This document shows, in pieces, positions 1,042-10,256 of a stretch of DNA of 11,765 nucleotides. The notes below the pieces were generated by a model. The model saw only the letters and a list, made by a program, of their open reading frames with translations. It searched no databases and was not told where the DNA came from. The DNA is from Candidatus Thorarchaeota archaeon (GTDB lineage Archaea > Asgardarchaeota > Thorarchaeia > Thorarchaeales > Thorarchaeaceae): contig JBHLRQ010000038.1 in assembly GCA_048882385.1 (NCBI GenBank), forward strand, positions 1 through 11,765, written 5' to 3'. The translations under genes were made by a program, and so were the position numbers. Position 1 is the stretch's first letter. Every line of letters begins with the position of its first letter.

Positions 1042-1117
1042 GTGGCATATCCGTGAGGCGGTTACCCCTGGCTGAGCTTCGGCAATGACGAGCCAAGAGC
1101 AAGCTGAGATTTGCCAC
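1042..1117 (+). ncRNA. Box C/D 2'-O-methylation guide sRNA 1
   Basis: Terminal stem GTGGCATATC/GATTTGCCAC; box C GTGAGGC (1053-1059); 12-nt guide GGTTACCCCTGG; box D' CTGA (1072-1075); GC-TTCG-GC hairpin; box C' ATGACGA (1085-1091); 12-nt guide GCCAAGAGCAAG; box D CTGA (1104-1107). Both box pairs fit K-turn geometry with a 3-nt bulge and tandem GA. Confidence 0.88.
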
Positions 1118-1169: not shown

Positions 1170-1245
1170 GTGGCTAATCTGTGAAGCAGTTACCCCTGAC
1201 TGAGCAAAAGCTATGAAGACACGGTGAGCAGCTGAGATTTGCCAC
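1170..1245 (+). ncRNA. Box C/D 2'-O-methylation guide sRNA 2 (paralog of sRNA 1)
   Basis: Stem GTGGCTAATC/GATTTGCCAC; box C GTGAAGC (1181-1187); guide AGTTACCCCTGA; D' CTGA (1200-1203); GC-AAAA-GC; C' ATGAAGA (1213-1219); guide CACGGTGAGCAG; D CTGA (1232-1235). Same 76-nt length and box spacing as copy 1. Confidence 0.88.
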
Positions 1246-1259
1246 TCTACTGTTTGTCA

Positions 1260-1268
1260 TTTTAAAAA
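1260..1268. terminator. Possible bidirectional T-tract terminator between sRNA 2 (+) and the small ORF (-)
   Basis: TTTTAAAAA gives T4 on + and T5 on -, between convergent transcription units. Confidence 0.4.
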
Positions 1269-1270
1269 CT

Positions 1271-1517
1271 GGAGTTATGGCCGAAACCAAGAGCTGGGAG
1301 GAGAGAGATTGGACACCCATGTCCCTTTGTTGAAGACTACACTCCAGATGTAAGAATAAGTCGATTCTTCTCGAGTGCCACTCCAAATTCCTGCCCTTCG
1401 TCATCAAAGAGTAAGACATCGTCCTCCTTTACGAAGACCTTCACAGTCTTACGTAATTTCCGGGAGGGGATCTTCCTCATTGAAATGACATAAGTTTCGG
1501 CCAATGCTTCTAACTCC
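1271..1517. repeat. Long-range inverted repeat enclosing the small ORF
   Basis: GGAGTTA (1271-1277) pairs with TAACTCC (1511-1517), and TGGCCGAAAC (1278-1287) pairs with GTTTCGGCCA (1494-1503). This gives 17 perfect bp with a 7-nt bulge. Confidence 0.8.
1337..1504 (-). CDS. Small hypothetical protein, 55 aa (absent from the ORF track)
   Basis: Manual translation from TTG at 1504, with GGAG 9 nt upstream: MAETYVISMRKIPSRKLRKTVKVFVKEDDVLLFDDEGQEFGVALEKNRLILTSGV*, TAG at 1339-1337. Alternative ATG at 1480 gives 47 aa. Composition is protein-like, with a basic N-half and beta-strand patterns. Confidence 0.6.
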   Translation of the reverse strand: MAETYVISMRKIPSRKLRKTVKVFVKEDDVLLFDDEGQEFGVALEKNRLILTSGV

Positions 1518-1859
1518 GACGGATGCGGTAGTGGTGCGACAGTCTAAGAGGGATGCAAGACTTAAGACTATGATATCATTTTGACTATATATACAAGAAC
1601 GTGACAAAACAAGCCTCTCAAATGACCGGAAATCAAATTTCTTTCAAGTTTCCCCAAAGAGTAGTAAGTGCACAGTTGTTAACAATGGCAAACAATGTTC
1701 AGCAGTTACATCTAGGATTTAATGAACTTAACAGATGGCCAAATCATTTCAAGCAACAAATCCCAGATCTGAACATAGCTATTCGTCATTAAGCAAGTTG
1801 AATCCTAATCGATTCCAGCATGTGAATATCGTTCTAGATTTTGAAGTATTGTTAGTACA

Positions 1860-3353
1860 TTAGGGATTATACGCAAATGGATGCCTTGCAGAATCCTTCC
1901 TCCTAATGATTTCCTCAACACTATGCCTACCTTCAATAGCACGACGCAATGCATGTCGTGTAGATATGAAGTTGTTAATGTGGACACGAGTCGGATTTAC
2001 GGCACTTGGATGAACGAACACATTTACAGCAATAACCAGATCAGGAACCAGTTCCTCGGGTATGATTGCGTCTGTAATGGTCCGACGTATCGCATCAGAA
2101 ACAGCCTTCTGTGCAACGTCATAGACCATCTTCTTATGTTTCTCTGAAGTGATTGTCACTGTAGGAGCGAAGACAGTCTTCAGTTCTAGATTCTTGATTA
2201 TGTTTGAGGGGTGTGTGTCTTCAATAATTTTTCCTGCGTTTTCGAGTGCAAATCCTACTGGACCACTTCGCATTCCCATGACAAGGTCAACATGAGCAAT
2301 TTCACTGCCTCCTCCAAACAATGCTTCACCATGAAGTAATGTTAGATCTTTAACAACATCAGGTACCATGCCAACAGCTTTGGGATAGTTCTCACTTACG
2401 AGAGATCGGTCGCCCATCTTGAAGACTACTTCTCCTCTTGGAATCAGCTGAAGGTCTTCCAAACATGTTCTAATTTCATCATGCATGTCATATCCAAGAC
2501 TGTCACCTACTTGTAGCGGGAGCTTCGCTGGACCAACTGACACTCCCATCATATTGAGGGCTGCTTTCACGGCAAGACCTCCACCATTATTGACGAAAAT
2601 TCGAATGAGTTTCTGAATACTTCTCTGTATAATGAGAGCTTCTTTCAGATCACCGTTTGCGAGAGCAGCTTGCATTTTGATATATCGATCAGGAAAGACA
2701 TTTGCACTAGCTAGAATTGCACCATCACATCCCGATGCAAGAGCGGGTAATGCTACTTCATCATGACCAACAACAACCTGAAAGTGCTCGGGCTTTCGAA
2801 CAAGGATGGTTGTTAGATTGACAAGATCACCGCTGGAATCCTTCATCCCAATTATTCCATCAATATCTCTGAGCCCATCAACTAAGGTCCAGTGTATTGG
2901 TACACCAGTCACTTGAGGAATATTGTATACGAAGATAGGAATGTCACTATTGTTTGCAACTCGCTCAAAGTGATCATAAATCTCTTTGTCAGATGGTTTG
3001 AGGAAATATGGCGAAACAACAAGAGCTGCAGATGCTCCAAATTCTGCGGCTTTTCGTGTCAATTTGACAACGTCACCAGTATATGCAGCCCCGGTTCCAG
3101 CCATAACAGGGACTCGACCCTTAGCAGCGTCGCACGCTATTCTAATGCATTCAACTTTCTCATCAAATTTCATGCTAGTGAATTCACCAGTTGTACCACA
3201 AGGGACTATTCCAGTTGCTCCACTTTTTATGACATAGTCAATTAGTCGACGATACTGTTTTTCGTTTACACCATTTTCATCGAGTGGAGTCACAAGTGCT
3301 GGGTAAACACCCTGAAAGCGATATTCTCCTTCTGACACTTTGCTTACCTCCAT
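1860..3353 (-). CDS. DapA/DHDPS-family class I aldolase fused to a C-terminal formaldehyde-activating enzyme (Fae) domain
   Basis: N-terminal ~300 aa has GVYPALVTP, GTTGEF, YNIP and the Schiff-base Lys in GMKDSSG. The C-terminus has GEALFGGGSEIAHVDLVMG, VFVHP and a terminal RHPF, typical of Fae. The real start is probably GTG at 3338, preceded by GGAGGT. Confidence 0.88.
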   Translation of the reverse strand: MEVSKVSEGEYRFQGVYPALVTPLDENGVNEKQYRRLIDYVIKSGATGIVPCGTTGEFTSMKFDEKVECIRIACDAAKGRVPVMAGTGAAYTGDVVKLTRKAAEFGASAALVVSPYFLKPSDKEIYDHFERVANNSDIPIFVYNIPQVTGVPIHWTLVDGLRDIDGIIGMKDSSGDLVNLTTILVRKPEHFQVVVGHDEVALPALASGCDGAILASANVFPDRYIKMQAALANGDLKEALIIQRSIQKLIRIFVNNGGGLAVKAALNMMGVSVGPAKLPLQVGDSLGYDMHDEIRTCLEDLQLIPRGEVVFKMGDRSLVSENYPKAVGMVPDVVKDLTLLHGEALFGGGSEIAHVDLVMGMRSGPVGFALENAGKIIEDTHPSNIIKNLELKTVFAPTVTITSEKHKKMVYDVAQKAVSDAIRRTITDAIIPEELVPDLVIAVNVFVHPSAVNPTRVHINNFISTRHALRRAIEGRHSVEEIIRRKDSARHPFAYNP

Positions 3354-4741
3354 ATTCCTCCTAGCGCTGATTCCACAGCTTGCTGCGTAGCTGCTGTTAT
3401 CTCACGCCGATCTCTAAGGTTGAGATCAATATCTAGAGCCAAGATGGTAACATCATTGTTCACTGAATTCTTTGGAATCTTACCATCCTCCAAGAAGCCA
3501 GCAATAGCTTTGGCAGTTCCTGATTGTACAGGTCCGTAAAATAGAGAGGCTTGTCGCATAGACTCAATCTTTCTGATAGGCATCATGAGACTACTTGGTT
3601 TGACTGCAAGATTTGGCTCAAGAATTACTGTCAATGCCTCATATCCAATCTTGGGAGTTGTTAGAAGTTGAACAAAACTCCGACCAATCGGTCCATTTTT
3701 GGAACCAGTTACAATACCAACAGAAACAGTGGCATTCGATGCATTACTTGTTTTTATTGAGGGGGACTCTTCGATTCTAAGTCCTTGTTTGGAAAGTATG
3801 TCAAGAATCTGGATATCAGTGTTTACTGGTGAATGGGTTAGGTTTTCAATCAGACCCATTTTTTCAAGCTCTATTCGAATCTCTTCCTTAATCTCAGGAG
3901 TGAGTGTCCCACCAGTATTCAATGGCATTCTACTCTTTCCAGCTTTTATACCTAGCATTCTGAGTGCGGCTTTAACTGGAGGTGCTGCTCCAAATTTCAG
4001 TACCATTCTGGCAAAGGTCTGCGTAGTCCTTTGAAGCTCTGCAGCTTCCTCGATCTTACCTTCTTTTACTTTCTTCATGATATCCAACCAGAGATGAGGA
4101 ATTACATTGGCAGAAGCCATTATAGCTGCATTAGAACCTGCGATGACTGCAGACAGAAAGTTTTCATCAGCCCCACAGAGGACTTCCATCTTGCCTTTTA
4201 GTTTCTGGATCAATTCAAGTAGATATGGAACACTACCACTGCTATCTTTTATCCCAACAATGTTATCCAATTGAGCGAGATCTTCAACTACGTTCGTATT
4301 TAGAACTCCCAATGTGCATTGAGGAATATTATAGAGAATAATTGGGAGGTCACCTTTTCTTGCAATTGTAGCATAGTGTTCATAATAGCCCTTATCAGCT
4401 GGTCTCAGGTAGTAAGGAGAAATGACAAGAGCGGCGTCACAACCTAGATCAGCTGCATATTTTGTCAATTTGACTGTAGCATCGGTTGTATGTAATCCAG
4501 TTCCAGCAATTATTGGCACCCTCCCATCAACAAAATCTACAGTGATCTTTAGAAGCTTCTTTCGTTCTTCTGTCCTCATATAGGAGAACTCACCAGTTGT
4601 TCCAGCAGGAACTACTCCCGTGGCACCCTTATCAATGACATATTCAATGACCTGTTTGAAACCCTCTTCACTTATGTCGCCATCACGAGTGAATGGTGTC
4701 ACCAAGGCGGGCATAACACCTTGTGGTTTGAATCTACTCAC
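3344..4741 (-). CDS. DapA/DHDPS-family class I aldolase fused to a degenerate Fae-like domain
   Basis: GVMPALVTPF, GTTGEF, YNIP and GIKDSSG. The C-terminal GPIGRSF...GYEALTVILEPNLAVKPSSLMMP...LFYGPVQSGTAKAI matches the Fae core but lacks the AHIDL histidine motif. GTG start with GGTGAT SD. Confidence 0.85.
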   Translation of the reverse strand: MSRFKPQGVMPALVTPFTRDGDISEEGFKQVIEYVIDKGATGVVPAGTTGEFSYMRTEERKKLLKITVDFVDGRVPIIAGTGLHTTDATVKLTKYAADLGCDAALVISPYYLRPADKGYYEHYATIARKGDLPIILYNIPQCTLGVLNTNVVEDLAQLDNIVGIKDSSGSVPYLLELIQKLKGKMEVLCGADENFLSAVIAGSNAAIMASANVIPHLWLDIMKKVKEGKIEEAAELQRTTQTFARMVLKFGAAPPVKAALRMLGIKAGKSRMPLNTGGTLTPEIKEEIRIELEKMGLIENLTHSPVNTDIQILDILSKQGLRIEESPSIKTSNASNATVSVGIVTGSKNGPIGRSFVQLLTTPKIGYEALTVILEPNLAVKPSSLMMPIRKIESMRQASLFYGPVQSGTAKAIAGFLEDGKIPKNSVNNDVTILALDIDLNLRDRREITAATQQAVESALGGIWR

Positions 4742-5174: not shown

Positions 5175-7625
5175 CTATACAATATCAGCTCTTCTTGCGG
5201 CATAAACTAATGACTCATTGAAGTACTTGCCAACAACAGCACTTAATGTTGGACCGATGACATAGTTTAGATCACCGGGCATGAGCTCCTTGAGGTTTGT
5301 CTTGGATGTGAGCTTACCTTTCCGTTTCAGAGAACTTATCTCACGATCAACGGTTGATTTAGCTTTGTCCCAAGGCATTGGCTCGACACCTCTCCCAGTT
5401 CCAATCAAACCTTCTTTTATCTCAAAGAGGCTCCTCATGATGAATATTGAGAGATTGTCAATGTCTGTTGATTCTTTAACGAAATTCTTTCCGTGTTGTG
5501 TACAATTACCTTCTTTAACAATAGATCCACAAGCTGTGCAAATCAGGCGCCCTCGATTTTTCTTGATATAGAAAGCTAGAAGATTGGAACATTTTGTGGT
5601 GTCGTTCTGAGACCACTCCAACCCTTTAGTACCCACTCTACTAATTGCTCGAAAGACTGTAAGTGCTTTATTATGAAGATACATTAGTACATCAATACCC
5701 TCTTTCTTAGATTCGATTCTTCGTTTCTCTTTCTCCTTTGTTTCAAATGCAAACTCCTCTTTAGCCAGTTTTTCAAGACGTTCCTGTTTTAGAAATCGGT
5801 GCATGATATCATAGGCAATTGCATAGTTATCAAATTCAAGACTGGACATATCTAGAGGTTTGTTGACGATGCCTTCGAATACTGGGCTTGTACTAGTCTC
5901 AAGGTCTTTTTTGGCGGCCATCATGTCTTTATTCGATAGACGGGCATGCATCCAAGTACAGATTGTCTGAGCATCTAATTCTGGAAAGTTAATCTTCATT
6001 TCATATATACGCATAGATTCAAGATCAATCAGAATCTCTTCGCGTAGAAATTGTAAGCCAGATTCAGTATCTTCATAGATGCTTTTGAGTAATGCTTTGA
6101 TACGGAGCAAATCCTGTTTCGAACGAATATAGGCTTCAACGACCCTCGTAAGATTTGTCAGAATGCCAATAGTAAAGTGCCAAATAATATCTAATCGTAA
6201 AGCCAACACAGTTTCTTCTTCTGTTCTCTGCTGCGTAAAGTCCCGTGCTGACGATATCCCCAAAGAACTTAGTGCTCCTGTCTTTACTTGCTCTCTTACG
6301 CCTAGTAATCTTACTACTTCTTCTGGAGGAGGCACACGCATTTTCTTTTTGAGTTCTTCGAGAATTTCCACTTCGATTCCTACTAGCTTTTCCCGCTCTT
6401 TTGTGAATAGATCAATGGATATTTTCTCAAGCTCTGCTGACCAATATCCCTTTGACCTTAGTAGTCCCTTAACAGGACCATCAAGTAGACGTTCCATTTT
6501 TTCCAATGTCTTTAAAGACCTCTCAAGGGATTCTAACTCTTCCTTGCTTACCTCAGGTCGTGTGGAATCTGCAATGGTTTCAGTTGTCAACGACTGAAGA
6601 CCAGGACCAATAACAGTCGGATCACCAATGCCTCTTCTTCTCAATTGCGCGCGTATATCATCTGGACTAACCAGTAACAAGTTTGCGAGTGATTCATAGA
6701 TTGTTTCAGCATCAGTGTTCAGAATATCAGAAATACGACTTGAAACAATATCACCTAATTTCTTTTCATACTCTTCAAGAGTTGTAGGTATATCAAATTC
6801 AGCCTCTAGGACCTCAAGCATGGTAATACGCATCTCGTGTGATTTTCTTAATCCCTTGAGGTCTTCTGACCGCTTGCAAAATCTAGCTGCAATACTGGAA
6901 GCAATAGCATCCCAGTTTCTAATTGGTACAACTGAATCAAGCAAACGTCCTTTCGCATATTCAACCTTCCCAAAAATTTTCTCAATACCCATTTTCAGAA
7001 TTGTAGTTTCAGGAACTTCAGAAGCATGTTCCCTTAGCAGCTCTTCTCTTAATGATAGTGCACTCTCTTTTAACCCAGAAGCCTTTGTATAGAGGTCCTT
7101 ACGCCATTGGTCAGCCCATCCTGTGATCTCTAGTATTAAATCAATATCGTGATTTGATGCATATTCACTAGGAATCTGACTGAGAGTATCTCTTAGAGTT
7201 TGGATGATTTTCTCTTTGATTTCCGGGGAGGATGAATCTGTTCCAGCAACTGAATCGATAAGACGGATAGTCAACAAACTTGTTTGCTTTGCCACATCAA
7301 TTTCTTCACGTTGTTTTTCAGACAGTAACTTACGAACCTCCAGTTCGAGTTGTTGACGTTCTTCATCTCCCAGATCATCTTTCATATCACTTCCCACTCC
7401 GGGTTCATCTGATGGAGCTAAGAGGCGAATACCCTGATAGCTGTGAAGATAGAAAGCAGCAAAGAAAGAAAACACCCCCTCAAGTGGTTGTTTTTCCTTT
7501 AACAACTCATGAAATAGTTGTCTATCTCGAGTACTCCTCATATGAGAAGCTAGTGCTTCTCTCAACAGGATTTCTTTGCCAGCTTCACTCATTTGACGAG
7601 TTTTCAATACCCACGAACTTGCCAT
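5175..7625 (-). CDS. Large alpha-helical hypothetical protein with a C-terminal CxxC-x8-CxxH zinc-finger-like motif
   Basis: Uninterrupted ORF of ~816 aa rich in E/L/K, with CTACGSIVKEGNCTQHG near the C-terminus. The ATG at 7625 follows a GAGGTGA SD that contains the upstream gene's stop codon. Confidence 0.85.
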   Translation of the reverse strand: MASSWVLKTRQMSEAGKEILLREALASHMRSTRDRQLFHELLKEKQPLEGVFSFFAAFYLHSYQGIRLLAPSDEPGVGSDMKDDLGDEERQQLELEVRKLLSEKQREEIDVAKQTSLLTIRLIDSVAGTDSSSPEIKEKIIQTLRDTLSQIPSEYASNHDIDLILEITGWADQWRKDLYTKASGLKESALSLREELLREHASEVPETTILKMGIEKIFGKVEYAKGRLLDSVVPIRNWDAIASSIAARFCKRSEDLKGLRKSHEMRITMLEVLEAEFDIPTTLEEYEKKLGDIVSSRISDILNTDAETIYESLANLLLVSPDDIRAQLRRRGIGDPTVIGPGLQSLTTETIADSTRPEVSKEELESLERSLKTLEKMERLLDGPVKGLLRSKGYWSAELEKISIDLFTKEREKLVGIEVEILEELKKKMRVPPPEEVVRLLGVREQVKTGALSSLGISSARDFTQQRTEEETVLALRLDIIWHFTIGILTNLTRVVEAYIRSKQDLLRIKALLKSIYEDTESGLQFLREEILIDLESMRIYEMKINFPELDAQTICTWMHARLSNKDMMAAKKDLETSTSPVFEGIVNKPLDMSSLEFDNYAIAYDIMHRFLKQERLEKLAKEEFAFETKEKEKRRIESKKEGIDVLMYLHNKALTVFRAISRVGTKGLEWSQNDTTKCSNLLAFYIKKNRGRLICTACGSIVKEGNCTQHGKNFVKESTDIDNLSIFIMRSLFEIKEGLIGTGRGVEPMPWDKAKSTVDREISSLKRKGKLTSKTNLKELMPGDLNYVIGPTLSAVVGKYFNESLVYAARRADIV

Positions 7626-7631
7626 TGTCAA

Positions 7632-10256
7632 TCACCTCAGAAAAGTACTCCCCACTGACACGATCATATCGGTTCCATGTCGATTATATGTCACAAGATA
7701 GAGTAATCCCTCTTCTTTCGTATCTCGAAGATAGACTCGAGAAATTCGTGGTAGAAGATGTCCTAGACCTCGAACTGTTGAGTTCATTAAATGCTCTACA
7801 AATTCTTGACCAATGTTGATACCAATCAATGATGCAGATCCAATACCTTCCGCTTGAAGTCGTAACACACGTCTCGCAAATATATCCTCCATTCCTTTCT
7901 CTCGTTCCTTCAGTTGGAGGAGTTTACTCTGAAGGAGGTCTCGAAGTTCTATGTAGAATTTGAGAGAGGGATCCGGACTTGGTTTTTGAGGCTCTGGTTT
8001 TTCTTCCTTTACAGGATATTGATTTCGAATATCATCAATTTCTGATTCGATTGATGAAGGTTTGATTGGTTCTTCTGGAGGAGGTGCGACAGAGCCAGGT
8101 AGATAATCTTCAACAGCAGTCGCAGCTTTATACTCTTCAAGTTTCATTTTGTAGTCTTGCAGAGAAGCTTCGTATTCTCGCATCGCTACGTCATATTGTT
8201 GTGTTTTCTCTGCAATCAAAGACTCACGTTTTGTATTGTTTTCACGTATTAATTCATTCTCTTGTTTAACAATCTGACATTGTGCTTCCCATTCCTGAAT
8301 CTCTTTTCGATACTTATCTTCACGAATATCAGCCTCGAATTTTGCTCTATCAGCCATTGAACTCGGGGTAACCGTTTCTCCTACAATTTCATGAACTGAG
8401 TGTAGGAGAGTAAGAAGAGCTTGGGGTTGTGTCATTGTTTCGTCAATTGCACCTCTAAAACTATCTACCCAGTCTAGTGCTTCTTTTTTCCATTCATCTG
8501 GTCGCTCTGCAGCGCTTTCGATAGCTACTGATAGCTCTTCAACGAGGTTTGTTTTTTCCTGAAGCATTTTGTCGATGATACGACGAACAAGAGGCTTTGA
8601 GAGAATTGTATTTGCAACATCAGGAATTATGTCTGATCCTAGAGTTTCAAATTCATCAAGTAGAGACATTAATGTCACTCCATGATCAGTCAATGGACCC
8701 TCACCTTGGGGCACACTATAGTTCTGAGTTATTGCACGACGTGCAATTTCAGCCACATCAGAAAAGCCAATCAAATCCCAAACATCAATTTCCTTGAAAG
8801 CATCAATCATTTTTCGAGTTATTACATCCATCAATTGTTTGAAATCTTGATAGCTAGCACCCACAAACATCTCTTTCGAAAATGCAGCGTTTAGTTGAGC
8901 TTCAACTTCAGCATAGAATTTTTCAAACAAAGTCAGGTCTGTTGGATCCGAATACTCACTGAGAGCCTCTTGTCTGAATTCATTGAGGGCAGTGATGAAA
9001 GCTTTCCTTGCAGCGTTTATCACAAGATACTGATTTAACTCATTTGAGAAATATTGAGTCACCTTTGTAGCGTAAGCTATCGAATATCTCAAAGTACCCT
9101 TTAACTGCCATGCACGAACCTCTCCAAGCTGAGAAAATTCACGAGTAACTGAGTTCATAAAACGTTCAGCGAGTTCAAGAGAGAGTTTCTTCCTGATTCC
9201 AGAGAATTCATCACTGGCTGAAACAGTTCCAATTAGAGAGCTTTTGTGGGCTTCGATAGTAAGTGATTTCCCGGAGCTCAAATGTTGCTCAACAATATGT
9301 TCTAGAGAGTTTACAGTTTCTTCCAGTGATTTTACGAACTCATCTATTCTCGGTTTCAGAGAATCAATATCCGATAATGAAACTTCACTCAGCTGAAGAA
9401 ACTCAATTAGAGCAGCAACAACACCTTCGACGACTTCTGCTTCCTCAACAGCATATGCGTAATAGTTTAGTTCTTTAAGGACATCTTGACCTGTTTCTGG
9501 AATTGTCTTTGTTAAAGTTTCAATCGCACTTGGAGTAAGGACTCTATGTTTAAAGTGTTCAACAAGCTTTTCATCAGAGGACGATGGAATGCTGAATTCC
9601 AAACTCTTACGACCGATAATTTTCATTCCTGGAGGTAGTGATGTAAAATCATCAATAACGGACATTTTAGCTACTAGGTCAACATCTATGTGTTCGGGTT
9701 TCACTTGAAGTGAATCCCAAGAACCTTGGAATCTTCTGTCTATCATATCTACAAACAATACACTGTTCAAACGGTCTGCAAAATCTCGTAGGACAGCAAG
9801 TCCTTCAAGTTCGTAATTCAACTCATTATTGATAACCGCGCTCTCTATGTCCGCCATTTTCTTTGATAGAGTTTTCATATACTGGTCAATCTTGAACGGA
9901 TCAACAACTCCTTTTTCCCAACTCAGAACGCACACATGAGATCCTACTCCTCCTTCACTACCACCTGCAACAACAAGCTGCTCAGGTAAAACTTCTGGAC
10001 TTGGTGTACGATCTAGATCCCATTCCACAGATAATAGCTCAAGTCCTTCTGAAGATATTAGCGTATCACGTATAGCAAATATCAAAGGCGCTATGTTCAT
10101 TGCAACTGTTTCAGAATATTGTTCCAACATACTCCCTGCGCCAATTGCACTTCCAATAGGGTAGCCTAATCCTGTTGAGGTGCCTAAAACAGAAGCTGAT
10201 GCCATTCGAATAGCTTCAACTGTACTGGGAGTCTGTACATCTCTACGCTTACTCAT
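7632..10256 (-). CDS. Large hypothetical protein with a possible N-terminal longin-like domain, helical body and coiled coil with Pro-rich inserts
   Basis: 874-aa ORF with a GAGGAG SD. Long E/K/Q heptad region in the C-terminal third, and Pro-rich segments APPPEEPIKP and PVKEEKPEPQKPSPDP. The domain call is inferred from pattern only. Confidence 0.85.
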   Translation of the reverse strand: MSKRRDVQTPSTVEAIRMASASVLGTSTGLGYPIGSAIGAGSMLEQYSETVAMNIAPLIFAIRDTLISSEGLELLSVEWDLDRTPSPEVLPEQLVVAGGSEGGVGSHVCVLSWEKGVVDPFKIDQYMKTLSKKMADIESAVINNELNYELEGLAVLRDFADRLNSVLFVDMIDRRFQGSWDSLQVKPEHIDVDLVAKMSVIDDFTSLPPGMKIIGRKSLEFSIPSSSDEKLVEHFKHRVLTPSAIETLTKTIPETGQDVLKELNYYAYAVEEAEVVEGVVAALIEFLQLSEVSLSDIDSLKPRIDEFVKSLEETVNSLEHIVEQHLSSGKSLTIEAHKSSLIGTVSASDEFSGIRKKLSLELAERFMNSVTREFSQLGEVRAWQLKGTLRYSIAYATKVTQYFSNELNQYLVINAARKAFITALNEFRQEALSEYSDPTDLTLFEKFYAEVEAQLNAAFSKEMFVGASYQDFKQLMDVITRKMIDAFKEIDVWDLIGFSDVAEIARRAITQNYSVPQGEGPLTDHGVTLMSLLDEFETLGSDIIPDVANTILSKPLVRRIIDKMLQEKTNLVEELSVAIESAAERPDEWKKEALDWVDSFRGAIDETMTQPQALLTLLHSVHEIVGETVTPSSMADRAKFEADIREDKYRKEIQEWEAQCQIVKQENELIRENNTKRESLIAEKTQQYDVAMREYEASLQDYKMKLEEYKAATAVEDYLPGSVAPPPEEPIKPSSIESEIDDIRNQYPVKEEKPEPQKPSPDPSLKFYIELRDLLQSKLLQLKEREKGMEDIFARRVLRLQAEGIGSASLIGINIGQEFVEHLMNSTVRGLGHLLPRISRVYLRDTKEEGLLYLVTYNRHGTDMIVSVGSTFLR

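Follow-up and report, generated by a model that had tools for sequence, protein, structure and literature searches.

A 3' arm complementary to the start region of a small Thorarchaeota mRNA: covariation of the helix and a possible role in start-site masking

Within an 11,765-nucleotide (nt) stretch of DNA from a Candidatus Thorarchaeota archaeon (NCBI GenBank assembly GCA_048882385.1, contig JBHLRQ010000038.1; hereafter the window), we analysed a small open reading frame (ORF) on the minus strand whose mRNA would carry, just before its predicted 3' end, an arm complementary to its own start region. The ORF and the elements around it are given below in window positions, in the order in which they would be transcribed. 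Counts of loci refer to 63 loci from the family to which the window belongs.

1586..1593, minus strand: TATA-like box TATATATA, located 89 nt before the start codon.
1505..1563, minus strand: predicted 5' leader, about 59 nt long; conservation sets in abruptly at AAGUCUUGCAUCCC, 23 nt past the TATA box.
1541..1562, minus strand: 5'-terminal hairpin AGUCU/AGACU with the conserved loop UGCAUCCCUCUU, predicted by RNAalifold.
1513..1526, minus strand: GCAUCCGUCGGAGU, a possible local hairpin UCC-GUC-GGA holding the Shine-Dalgarno (SD) sequence GGAG (1517-1514); RNAalifold pairs 47-52/56-60.
1511..1517, minus strand: 5' SD arm GGAGUUA, pairing with 1277-1271; clade-specific.
1337..1504, minus strand: ORF of 55 amino acids (aa) with a TTG start (ATG in most relatives) and the stop TAG at 1339-1337; small orphan protein, basic in its N-terminal half and acidic in its C-terminal half.
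1493..1503, minus strand: 5' start arm, formed by the U and G of the UUG start and codons 2-4 (GCC GAA ACU), pairing with 1288-1278.
1296..1325, minus strand: spacer in the 3' untranslated region (UTR), in which a small hairpin (GGAC..GUCC) precedes the pyrimidine run AAUCUCUCUCCUCCC; found in many of the genus's loci and missing where the arm abuts the stop.
1288-1271, minus strand: whole 3' arm GGUUUCGGCCAUAACUCC, separated from the ORF stop by a 48-nt spacer.
1278..1288, minus strand: start-codon part of the 3' arm, GGUUUCGGCCA, kept as GGUYUCRGCC in 61 of 63 loci.
1271..1277, minus strand: SD part of the 3' arm, UAACUCC, directly continuing the start-codon part.
1264..1268, minus strand: T5 tract, a likely archaeal terminator, which would place the arm within about 10 nt of the predicted RNA 3' end.

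The locus is most likely an independent transcription unit of about 300 nt, made up of TATA box, leader, 55-codon ORF, 3'UTR and oligo-T tract. A TATA-like motif is present in 57 of the 60 loci with enough upstream sequence, and in 51 of these it lies 85-91 nt before the start codon. The predicted length of the leader follows from the onset of conservation about 23 nt past this box. The 5' hairpin covaries between genera by inspection (AGUCU/AGACU in g1, AGCUU/AAGCU in g29). At the other end of the unit, a run of at least four T occurs no more than 30 nt past the arm in 37 of 61 loci, and the remaining loci are pyrimidine-rich; this order of arm and T-rich sequence indicates that the arm lies at the 3' end of the RNA.

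Several further properties of the leader (1505-1563, minus strand) were observed. It is unique in the genome and is more conserved across genera than the synonymous sites of the ORF. It includes the 5' hairpin, with GCAUCCC as its loop; most genera have a C-rich run (GCCGCGCCACCAC), and GCAUCC recurs right before the SD. Two loci (L033 of G010 and L051 of G043) have a leader insertion that duplicates AUCCCUC around a CCCUC-A6-GGGUG hairpin.

The unit may be transcribed. A wetland metatranscriptome contains one 271-nt contig from a relative, which aligns to 1386-1554 with 21 differences over 169 bases and continues for another 102 nt; on the coding strand, the first 30 letters of this continuation encode the family's conserved C-terminal residues. 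The extent of the contig approximates the predicted transcript length and no more. We regard this contig as a weak hint of expression. The search covered 21 sequencing runs, one of them RNA (a small share of the sampled words), and the lack of cover over 1000-1385 and 1555-1700 is uninformative.

The 3' arm of the window matches two segments of the initiation region without a mismatch. The SD arm GGAGUUA (1517-1511) is a perfect complement of UAACUCC (1277-1271) over 7 base pairs (bp), and the start arm UGGCCGAAAC (1503-1494) is a perfect complement of GUUUCGGCCA (1287-1278) over 10 bp, with the wobble G1288-U1493 as a possible eleventh pair. The loop GAAGCAU (1510-1504) lies between the two 5' arms, and its final U is the first base of the UUG start (1504-1502). 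On the 3' side, UAACUCC is followed by AG and then by TTTTT at 1268-1264. A preliminary description of this DNA, made from its letters, had pointed out the 7+10 bp complementarity and its position next to a putative terminator; the sequence, the RNAfold predictions and the oligo-T tract right after the arm uphold both points.

RNAfold places the two-part helix in both the minimum free energy and the centroid structure of 1265-1525 (minus strand). The minimum free energy of this region is -88.8 kcal/mol (z = -3.34), and none of 200 dinucleotide shuffles was as stable. The 3' arm alone forms no hairpin (-2.8 kcal/mol, z +0.89), and the stability of the leader alone is not unusual (z +0.50). As a separate observation, the pyrimidine run AAUCUCUCUCCUCCC of the spacer could pair with the purine-rich codons AAGGAGGA within the ORF.

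The encoded protein is widespread in one family. A single-protein query found it, without internal stops and at 47-81% identity, in 20 of 24 sampled genomes of the same genus. Profile searches found it in 22 of 27 other genomes of the genus and in 62 of 85 other genomes of family f1 (12 genera). Elsewhere in the phylum, one of 315 genomes has a profile match, which is weak (E 6.5e-4), and 14 representatives match among 1.84 billion representative proteins (E up to 0.001). Entropy at the three codon positions over the 63 sequences (0.96/0.76/1.57) indicates coding selection on the ORF. The ORF of 55 aa is a real gene, one specific to a single Thorarchaeota family; its conservation, which the preliminary description had left to a homolog search, is thereby established. 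The 885-nt intergenic region that holds it is single-copy in the assembly of the window (a self-match and one further 31-nt stretch), a finding that rules out a repetitive or mobile nature of the element here.

The product is charged and not hydrophobic (isoelectric point (pI) 8.07, grand average of hydropathy (GRAVY) -0.13), and the earlier judgement that it is no classic membrane toxin agrees with these values. Its two halves differ sharply in charge, with a pI of 10.6 for the N-terminal and 4.05 for the C-terminal half, and 15 residues are invariant within the genus. AlphaFold2, run on a 20-sequence alignment, predicts a beta-alpha-beta-beta-beta fold without a long hydrophobic helix (mean predicted local distance difference test score, pLDDT, 85.2). 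Searches with the 55-aa sequence gave no matches in Pfam, none in NCBIfam and none in a PDB sequence-profile search at E up to 10. Searches with the model gave no Foldseek match against PDB at E up to 0.001 and no usable match in the ESM Atlas (best score 0.78); VIA-align against 48,161 chains reached a best Z of 4.3, which is at noise level. KH-domain proteins appear among the top VIA-align rows (Z 3.5-4.3) and were set aside as evidence for that reason.

Public gene predictions of the family (P0001, P0003, P0008, P0012 and P0014) often start far upstream and run through the leader ('DCR..TTAS.G'). The frame of the leader relative to the ORF varies between loci, and these N-terminal extensions are therefore probably mis-called starts.

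To follow the helix through the family, we extracted the 63 loci, set each start codon from the protein profile and searched the sequence downstream of each stop for the arm, with the conserved GGUYUCRGCC as anchor. A run of at least 10 nt complementary to the 16-nt start segment (G-U allowed, no more than 200 nt past the stop) is present in 54 of the 63 loci; control 200-nt windows of the same loci contain such a run in 79 of 2066 cases. Such a match is thus unlikely by chance, as had been supposed. A 3'UTR arm pairing with the G of AUG and codons 2-4 is found in 61 of the 63 loci, across 12 genera. Over positions +3 to +12 of these loci (610 cells), 576 cells are Watson-Crick pairs, 20 are G-U, 5 are A-C and 9 are other combinations. 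The contiguous helix has a median length of 11 bp (range 6-17). The distance from stop to arm varies between -6 and 78 nt (median 47), indicating that the arm tracks the start codon and not the stop.

Partition-function calculations assign the core helix a base-pair probability of 0.5 or more in 57 of the 61 loci. These calculations used a look-alike arm at the end of a small RNA (sRNA) gene in G342, G343, G385 and G386, and three of the four low values belong to these loci. The true arms of these four genomes lie nearer, are 8-9 bp long and are followed by T-tracts; they are the arms used in the 610-cell count. The antisense of the sRNA end (GGUCUCAGCY) is available as a further 10-bp partner of the start region in these loci (L132, L134, L109 and L122), about 100-136 nt past the stop.

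Compensatory changes in the helix, which the preliminary description had proposed to look for, are numerous. They are clearest at pair +9, the third base of codon 3 (GAA/GAG, opposite UUC/CUC in the arm), which is A-U in 33 loci, G-C in 27, G-U in one and mismatched in none. A maximum-likelihood tree was inferred from the leader and the remaining ORF columns, leaving out those of the helix. On it, the 5' base of this pair changed at least 10 times, and at least 7 of the changes are forced by well-supported branches. Of 7 phylogenetically independent pairs, all 7 show the same change in the 3' partner (sign test p ~0.016). Amino-acid replacements are matched as well: Thr4->Ala in G041 (ACC->GCC) is accompanied in the arm by GGUC->GGCC, and Thr4->Ile in G347 (ACC->AUC) by GGUU->GAUU. 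This covariation excludes chance complementarity.

Alignments within the genus give a consistent picture. RNAalifold, applied to 23 genus sequences, predicts the long-range start helix unprompted. In 20 genus sequences, 90.7% of the cells of the start helix are paired and four pairs show double changes; for the whole 23-pair structure, 79.4% of cells are paired, a value that falls to 29-50% when the partners are slid against each other. The third positions of codons 2 and 4 have entropies of 0.46 and 0.66, against a mean of 1.57. On the coding strand, G-U cells (20) outnumber A-C cells (5), which points to selection on the mRNA and not on the DNA or an antisense RNA. By this pattern of substitutions, selection acts on the start helix as RNA, and on the mRNA strand.

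A crude genome-wide scan for comparable pairing, covering 7,957 SD-preceded ORFs and requiring 10 or more Watson-Crick bp that join the start region to the 120 nt past the stop, revealed no clear class of start-to-3'UTR pairing (16 matches, against 7 and 7 in the controls). The matches include G000 contig C3 21853-22146 (plus strand) and 14 further places.

The preliminary description had the helix landing on both the ribosome binding site and the start. For the start region this is true of nearly the whole family; for the SD it is true of part of the window's genus. Ten of the 23 loci of this genus have an SD arm better than shuffles (no more than 5% of them as good), and beyond the genus none of 38 loci beats the shuffles. 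The SD-pairing arm is, as its distribution suggests, a recent addition in the sub-clade that includes the window. An ATCC-N2-5-GGA pattern occurs in 56 of the 63 loci and an SD-like GGAG, GGAA or GAGG in 60; across most genera, the SD lies at best within a small predicted local hairpin, UCC-N3-GGA. The bases of this hairpin are invariant and thus provide no covariation evidence for it. Within the start codon itself, the G is paired in all 61 loci that have the arm.

These observations suggest that the arm acts in cis from the 3'UTR and masks the start site once the transcript is finished, a reading in which we place middling confidence. The last 10-17 nt before the terminator would serve as an 'anti-start' arm that pairs with codons 2-4 and the start codon's G and, in the window's sub-clade, with the SD too. 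The pairing would close the whole ORF into a panhandle and deny the small ribosomal subunit access to the initiation region once the transcript is complete. Most translation would then take place on nascent RNA, before the arm is transcribed, and could resume upon removal, melting or titration of the arm; candidates for reopening the helix are 3' trimming, helicase action, the encoded protein and a competing RNA. In such a scheme, the element would be a translational limiter or switch and not a terminator hairpin.

One extension of this scheme is more speculative. With coupled transcription and translation, ribosomes might load while the first ~200-270 nt are transcribed and be excluded afterwards; since the arm is transcribed last, protein output would be tied to transcription. 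Where the arm abuts the stop (spacer of -6 to 10 nt in G018, G019, G021, G351, five of seven g22 loci and G387), a terminating ribosome would unwind it, which would not apply to the window with its 48-nt spacer.

A number of observations weigh against start-site masking. G346 and G352 have no arm; both have divergent N-termini and each is the sole genome of its genus here. The arm is thus dispensable in some lineages. Outside part of one genus, the arm leaves the SD uncovered, and a ribosome could dock on it and then open the helix. The A of the start codon is paired in only 19 of 61 loci and the U in 31. The unpaired probability of the AUG is similar in the full-length and the arm-less RNA (median 0.39 and 0.47, respectively); this measure is an average that includes the A and U, most of which are unpaired in any case. 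The single metatranscriptome contig is of low depth (3.2) and strandless and may reflect DNA carry-over. Finally, the same helix would protect the 3' end from exonucleases, and the data fit both roles.

The last point leads to the main rival explanation, which we consider unlikely though by no means negligible: that the panhandle mainly stabilises the RNA by blocking 3'-to-5' exonucleolytic decay, with any effect on translation being secondary. In its favour, the arm lies within about 10-25 nt of the predicted 3' end. Archaeal oligo-T terminators work without need for a hairpin, and the arm forms none of its own. For the Helicobacter pylori toxin mRNA aapA1, the part of the published account used here reports that the full-length fold with its 5'-3' pairing accounts for the mRNA's high stability (PMC5416894). 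A local hairpin would shield the 3' end and leave the N-terminal codons unconstrained, yet the arm invariably pairs with the initiation region and in no case with the extreme 5' end. Pairing with the start region costs synonymous freedom, the 59-nt leader stays outside the helix, and the SD pairing of the sub-clade has no obvious value for 3' protection. We prefer start-site masking over end protection because of the initiation-region partner, the constraint on codons 2 and 4 and the SD extension in the sub-clade.

A further alternative involves the sRNA genes beside the ORF, listed here with other genes of the window:

1170..1245, plus strand: C/D box sRNA gene, copy A, convergent with the ORF; GUGAAGC, 12 nt, CUGA, loop, AUGAAGA, 12 nt, CUGA and a 10-bp terminal stem.
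1042..1117, plus strand: C/D box sRNA gene, copy B, a tandem duplicate with a 128-nt period; C/D boxes, two 12-nt spacers and a 10-bp closing stem.
1860..3353, minus strand: DHDPS (DapA-like)-Fae fusion gene, the upstream same-strand neighbour, syntenic with the small ORF in most genera.
5175-7631 and 7632-10256, minus strand: two adjacent large ORFs of 818 and 874 aa, with no Pfam matches at E up to 0.001.

The helix could be a switch that is opened in trans, either by read-through of the convergent C/D sRNA genes, whose RNA would titrate the arm, or by binding of the encoded protein to its own mRNA. We think this quite unlikely. A plus-strand transcript passing from 1245 to 1290 would be complementary to the arm, and an sRNA gene (antisense GUGGC... 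motif) lies close behind the arm in the inspected loci of g1, g15, g17, g20, g22, g25, g26 and g27. A T-rich stretch lies directly past the sRNA on the plus strand, no read-through RNA was seen, and the adjacency may be plain synteny within the family, like that of the upstream DHDPS-Fae gene. The arrangement is also not universal: the inspected locus of G349 shows no sRNA gene behind the arm, and g29 has a different element there. For the protein-binding variant, the pI of the N-terminal half and the presence of RNA-binding KH-domain proteins among the weak, noise-level structural matches can be cited.

We regard it as highly improbable that the helix is a processing signal, at which a splicing endonuclease or another double-strand cut followed by ligation would produce a trimmed or circular ORF RNA. 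The helix does bracket the ORF exactly, and archaea circularise many RNAs that are flanked by long-range helices. Inspection revealed no bulge-helix-bulge geometry, for which two 3-nt bulges 4 bp apart would be expected; the window has a one-sided 7-nt bulge, and its relatives have an internal loop of 9-10 nt on one side and 3-4 nt on the other. The one RNA contig contains no back-splice joint, although contigs are a poor test of this. Least credible of all is a DNA-level inverted repeat, either an invertible phase-variable cassette or a palindromic protein-binding site: perfect 10-bp inverted repeats do flank the ORF, but such a repeat would lack the observed asymmetry between G-U and A-C cells, the ORF is inverted relative to the conserved leader in 0 of 63 loci, the arm tracks the start codon at a variable distance from the stop, and no recombinase family matched among the scanned window ORFs (two DHDPS-Fae, CutA1, a metallo-beta-lactamase fold, DUF123 and a CN hydrolase).

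Start-site masking by a 3' arm resembles a mechanism described for bacterial type I toxins, a parallel that the preliminary description had drawn. The hok/Sok system of plasmid R1 is one type I toxin locus whose mRNA folds back from 3' to 5' end. In another, aapA1/IsoA1 of H. pylori, the SD of the full-length AapA1 RNA (253 nt) is sequestered by the 5'-3' interaction and the RNA is poorly translated; removal of ~25-30 nt from the 3' end makes the SD accessible and the RNA translatable, according to the sections of that study relied on here (PMC5416894). The element in the window likewise belongs to a small-protein mRNA of the ~250-300 nt class in which the 3' end would pair with the 5' part and sequester the ribosome binding region.

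The differences are considerable. Type I toxin mRNAs are bacterial and the present element is archaeal; the toxins are hydrophobic membrane peptides, whereas the 55-aa protein is predicted to be a soluble-looking alpha/beta protein. Toxin mRNAs pair mainly through the 5'UTR and SD, while the arm described here pairs with the start codon and first codons. Type I systems have an antisense antitoxin; here no overlapping antisense RNA gene was identified from the sequence and strandless RNA data, and the RNA genes seen near the ORF are the two convergent C/D box sRNAs, whose ends stop 25 nt short of the arm. Unlike type I toxin loci, the gene is single-copy, syntenic and vertically conserved across the family. 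By analogy, then, the likeness is one of mechanism only, namely long-distance pairing of the 3' end with the initiation region. It does not extend to membership in the class, because the product is non-hydrophobic, no overlapping antisense gene was found and the gene is a vertically inherited, syntenic, single-copy one.

Complementary segments that close an RNA into a panhandle are also conserved in the cyclisation sequences of flaviviruses and the long-distance interactions of RNA phages. As in flavivirus cyclisation, one segment lies just inside the first coding region and the other in the 3'UTR. The viral elements act on genomes, in replication or gene coupling, whereas the arm would act on a cellular monocistronic mRNA. 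Little is known, to our knowledge, about post-transcriptional control in Asgard archaea, and the examples of 3'UTR-dependent translational control in archaea that we know of come without a defined RNA mechanism. In haloarchaea, the 5' and 3' UTRs were found to be jointly needed for translational regulation, with the direction set by the 3'UTR (Brenneis and Soppa 2009, PMC2636863). That work is genetic, and the portion of the article considered here describes no UTR-UTR pairing (PMC2636863); in the present case, pairing is supported by covariation and regulation is proposed. The haloarchaeal case concerns Halobacteria and the present one an Asgard lineage.

The locus is thus a compact case of ~300 nt in which a helix of 10-17 bp is backed by numerous independent compensatory substitutions in 12 genera. 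Should the helix gate translation, masking of the start by the 3' end would extend from bacterial toxin mRNAs to ordinary cellular genes of archaea, and the closest prokaryotic relatives of eukaryotes would possess a base-pairing counterpart of mRNA circularisation. A stronger version of this proposal, which we hold to be doubtful, is that Thorarchaeota have a dedicated RNA-only 'closed loop', in which the mRNA is translatable only while nascent or when a trans factor (sRNA-gene read-through, protein, helicase or 3' trimming) frees the start; it would be archaea's first conserved 5'-3' mRNA cyclisation switch backed by covariation. A literature search of titles and abstract openings returned no description of the locus, of a 5'-3' mRNA helix in Thorarchaeota or of such C/D sRNAs in Asgard archaea. 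The analysis also flags an uncharacterised, Thorarchaeota-specific family of small proteins whose start codon is mis-called in several public predictions.

The two sRNA genes convergent with the ORF are each 76 nt long and are preceded by a repeated promoter-like stretch (997-1020 and 1127-1150). Archaeal C/D box sRNAs share a consensus of C, D', C' and D boxes. Both copies have C/D' and C'/D box pairs about 12 nt apart and pairing ends, the hallmarks of this class. Their C boxes (GUGAAGC and GUGAGGC) deviate from the archaeal consensus, and their terminal stem is 10 bp long. No Rfam family matches the window at gathering score; below it, both copies match snoR38 (copy A, E 0.54, 23.1 bits; copy B, E 1.7, 20.9 bits; gathering score 45). 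ARAGORN found no tRNA in the window. A pattern search detected the same C/D arrangement in G352 and G374, visual inspection did so in other genera, and in most genera the inspected loci have an sRNA gene behind the arm.

Across genera the D' guide of copy A is conserved; it is complementary at 11 of 12 positions to the 23S rRNA of the family member G342 around position 2571, a site that we take to lie in domain V. In the window's own assembly, the sRNA genes are the only guide targets with at most one mismatch, and for the D guides no target was found in a search that left aside 16S rRNA and tRNAs. The mRNA start motif GGCUGAR (1494-1503) resembles the D box and stem end of the sRNA (1232-1245).

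On the other side of the ORF, tblastn detects DHDPS-Fae upstream in 44 of the 63 fetched loci, and several of the others have short flanks. In the window, this gene (1860-3353) adjoins a paralogous ORF (3344-4741), also on the minus strand; the two are tandem fusions of a DapA/DHDPS-like aldolase with a formaldehyde-activating enzyme (Fae) and overlap by 10 nt.

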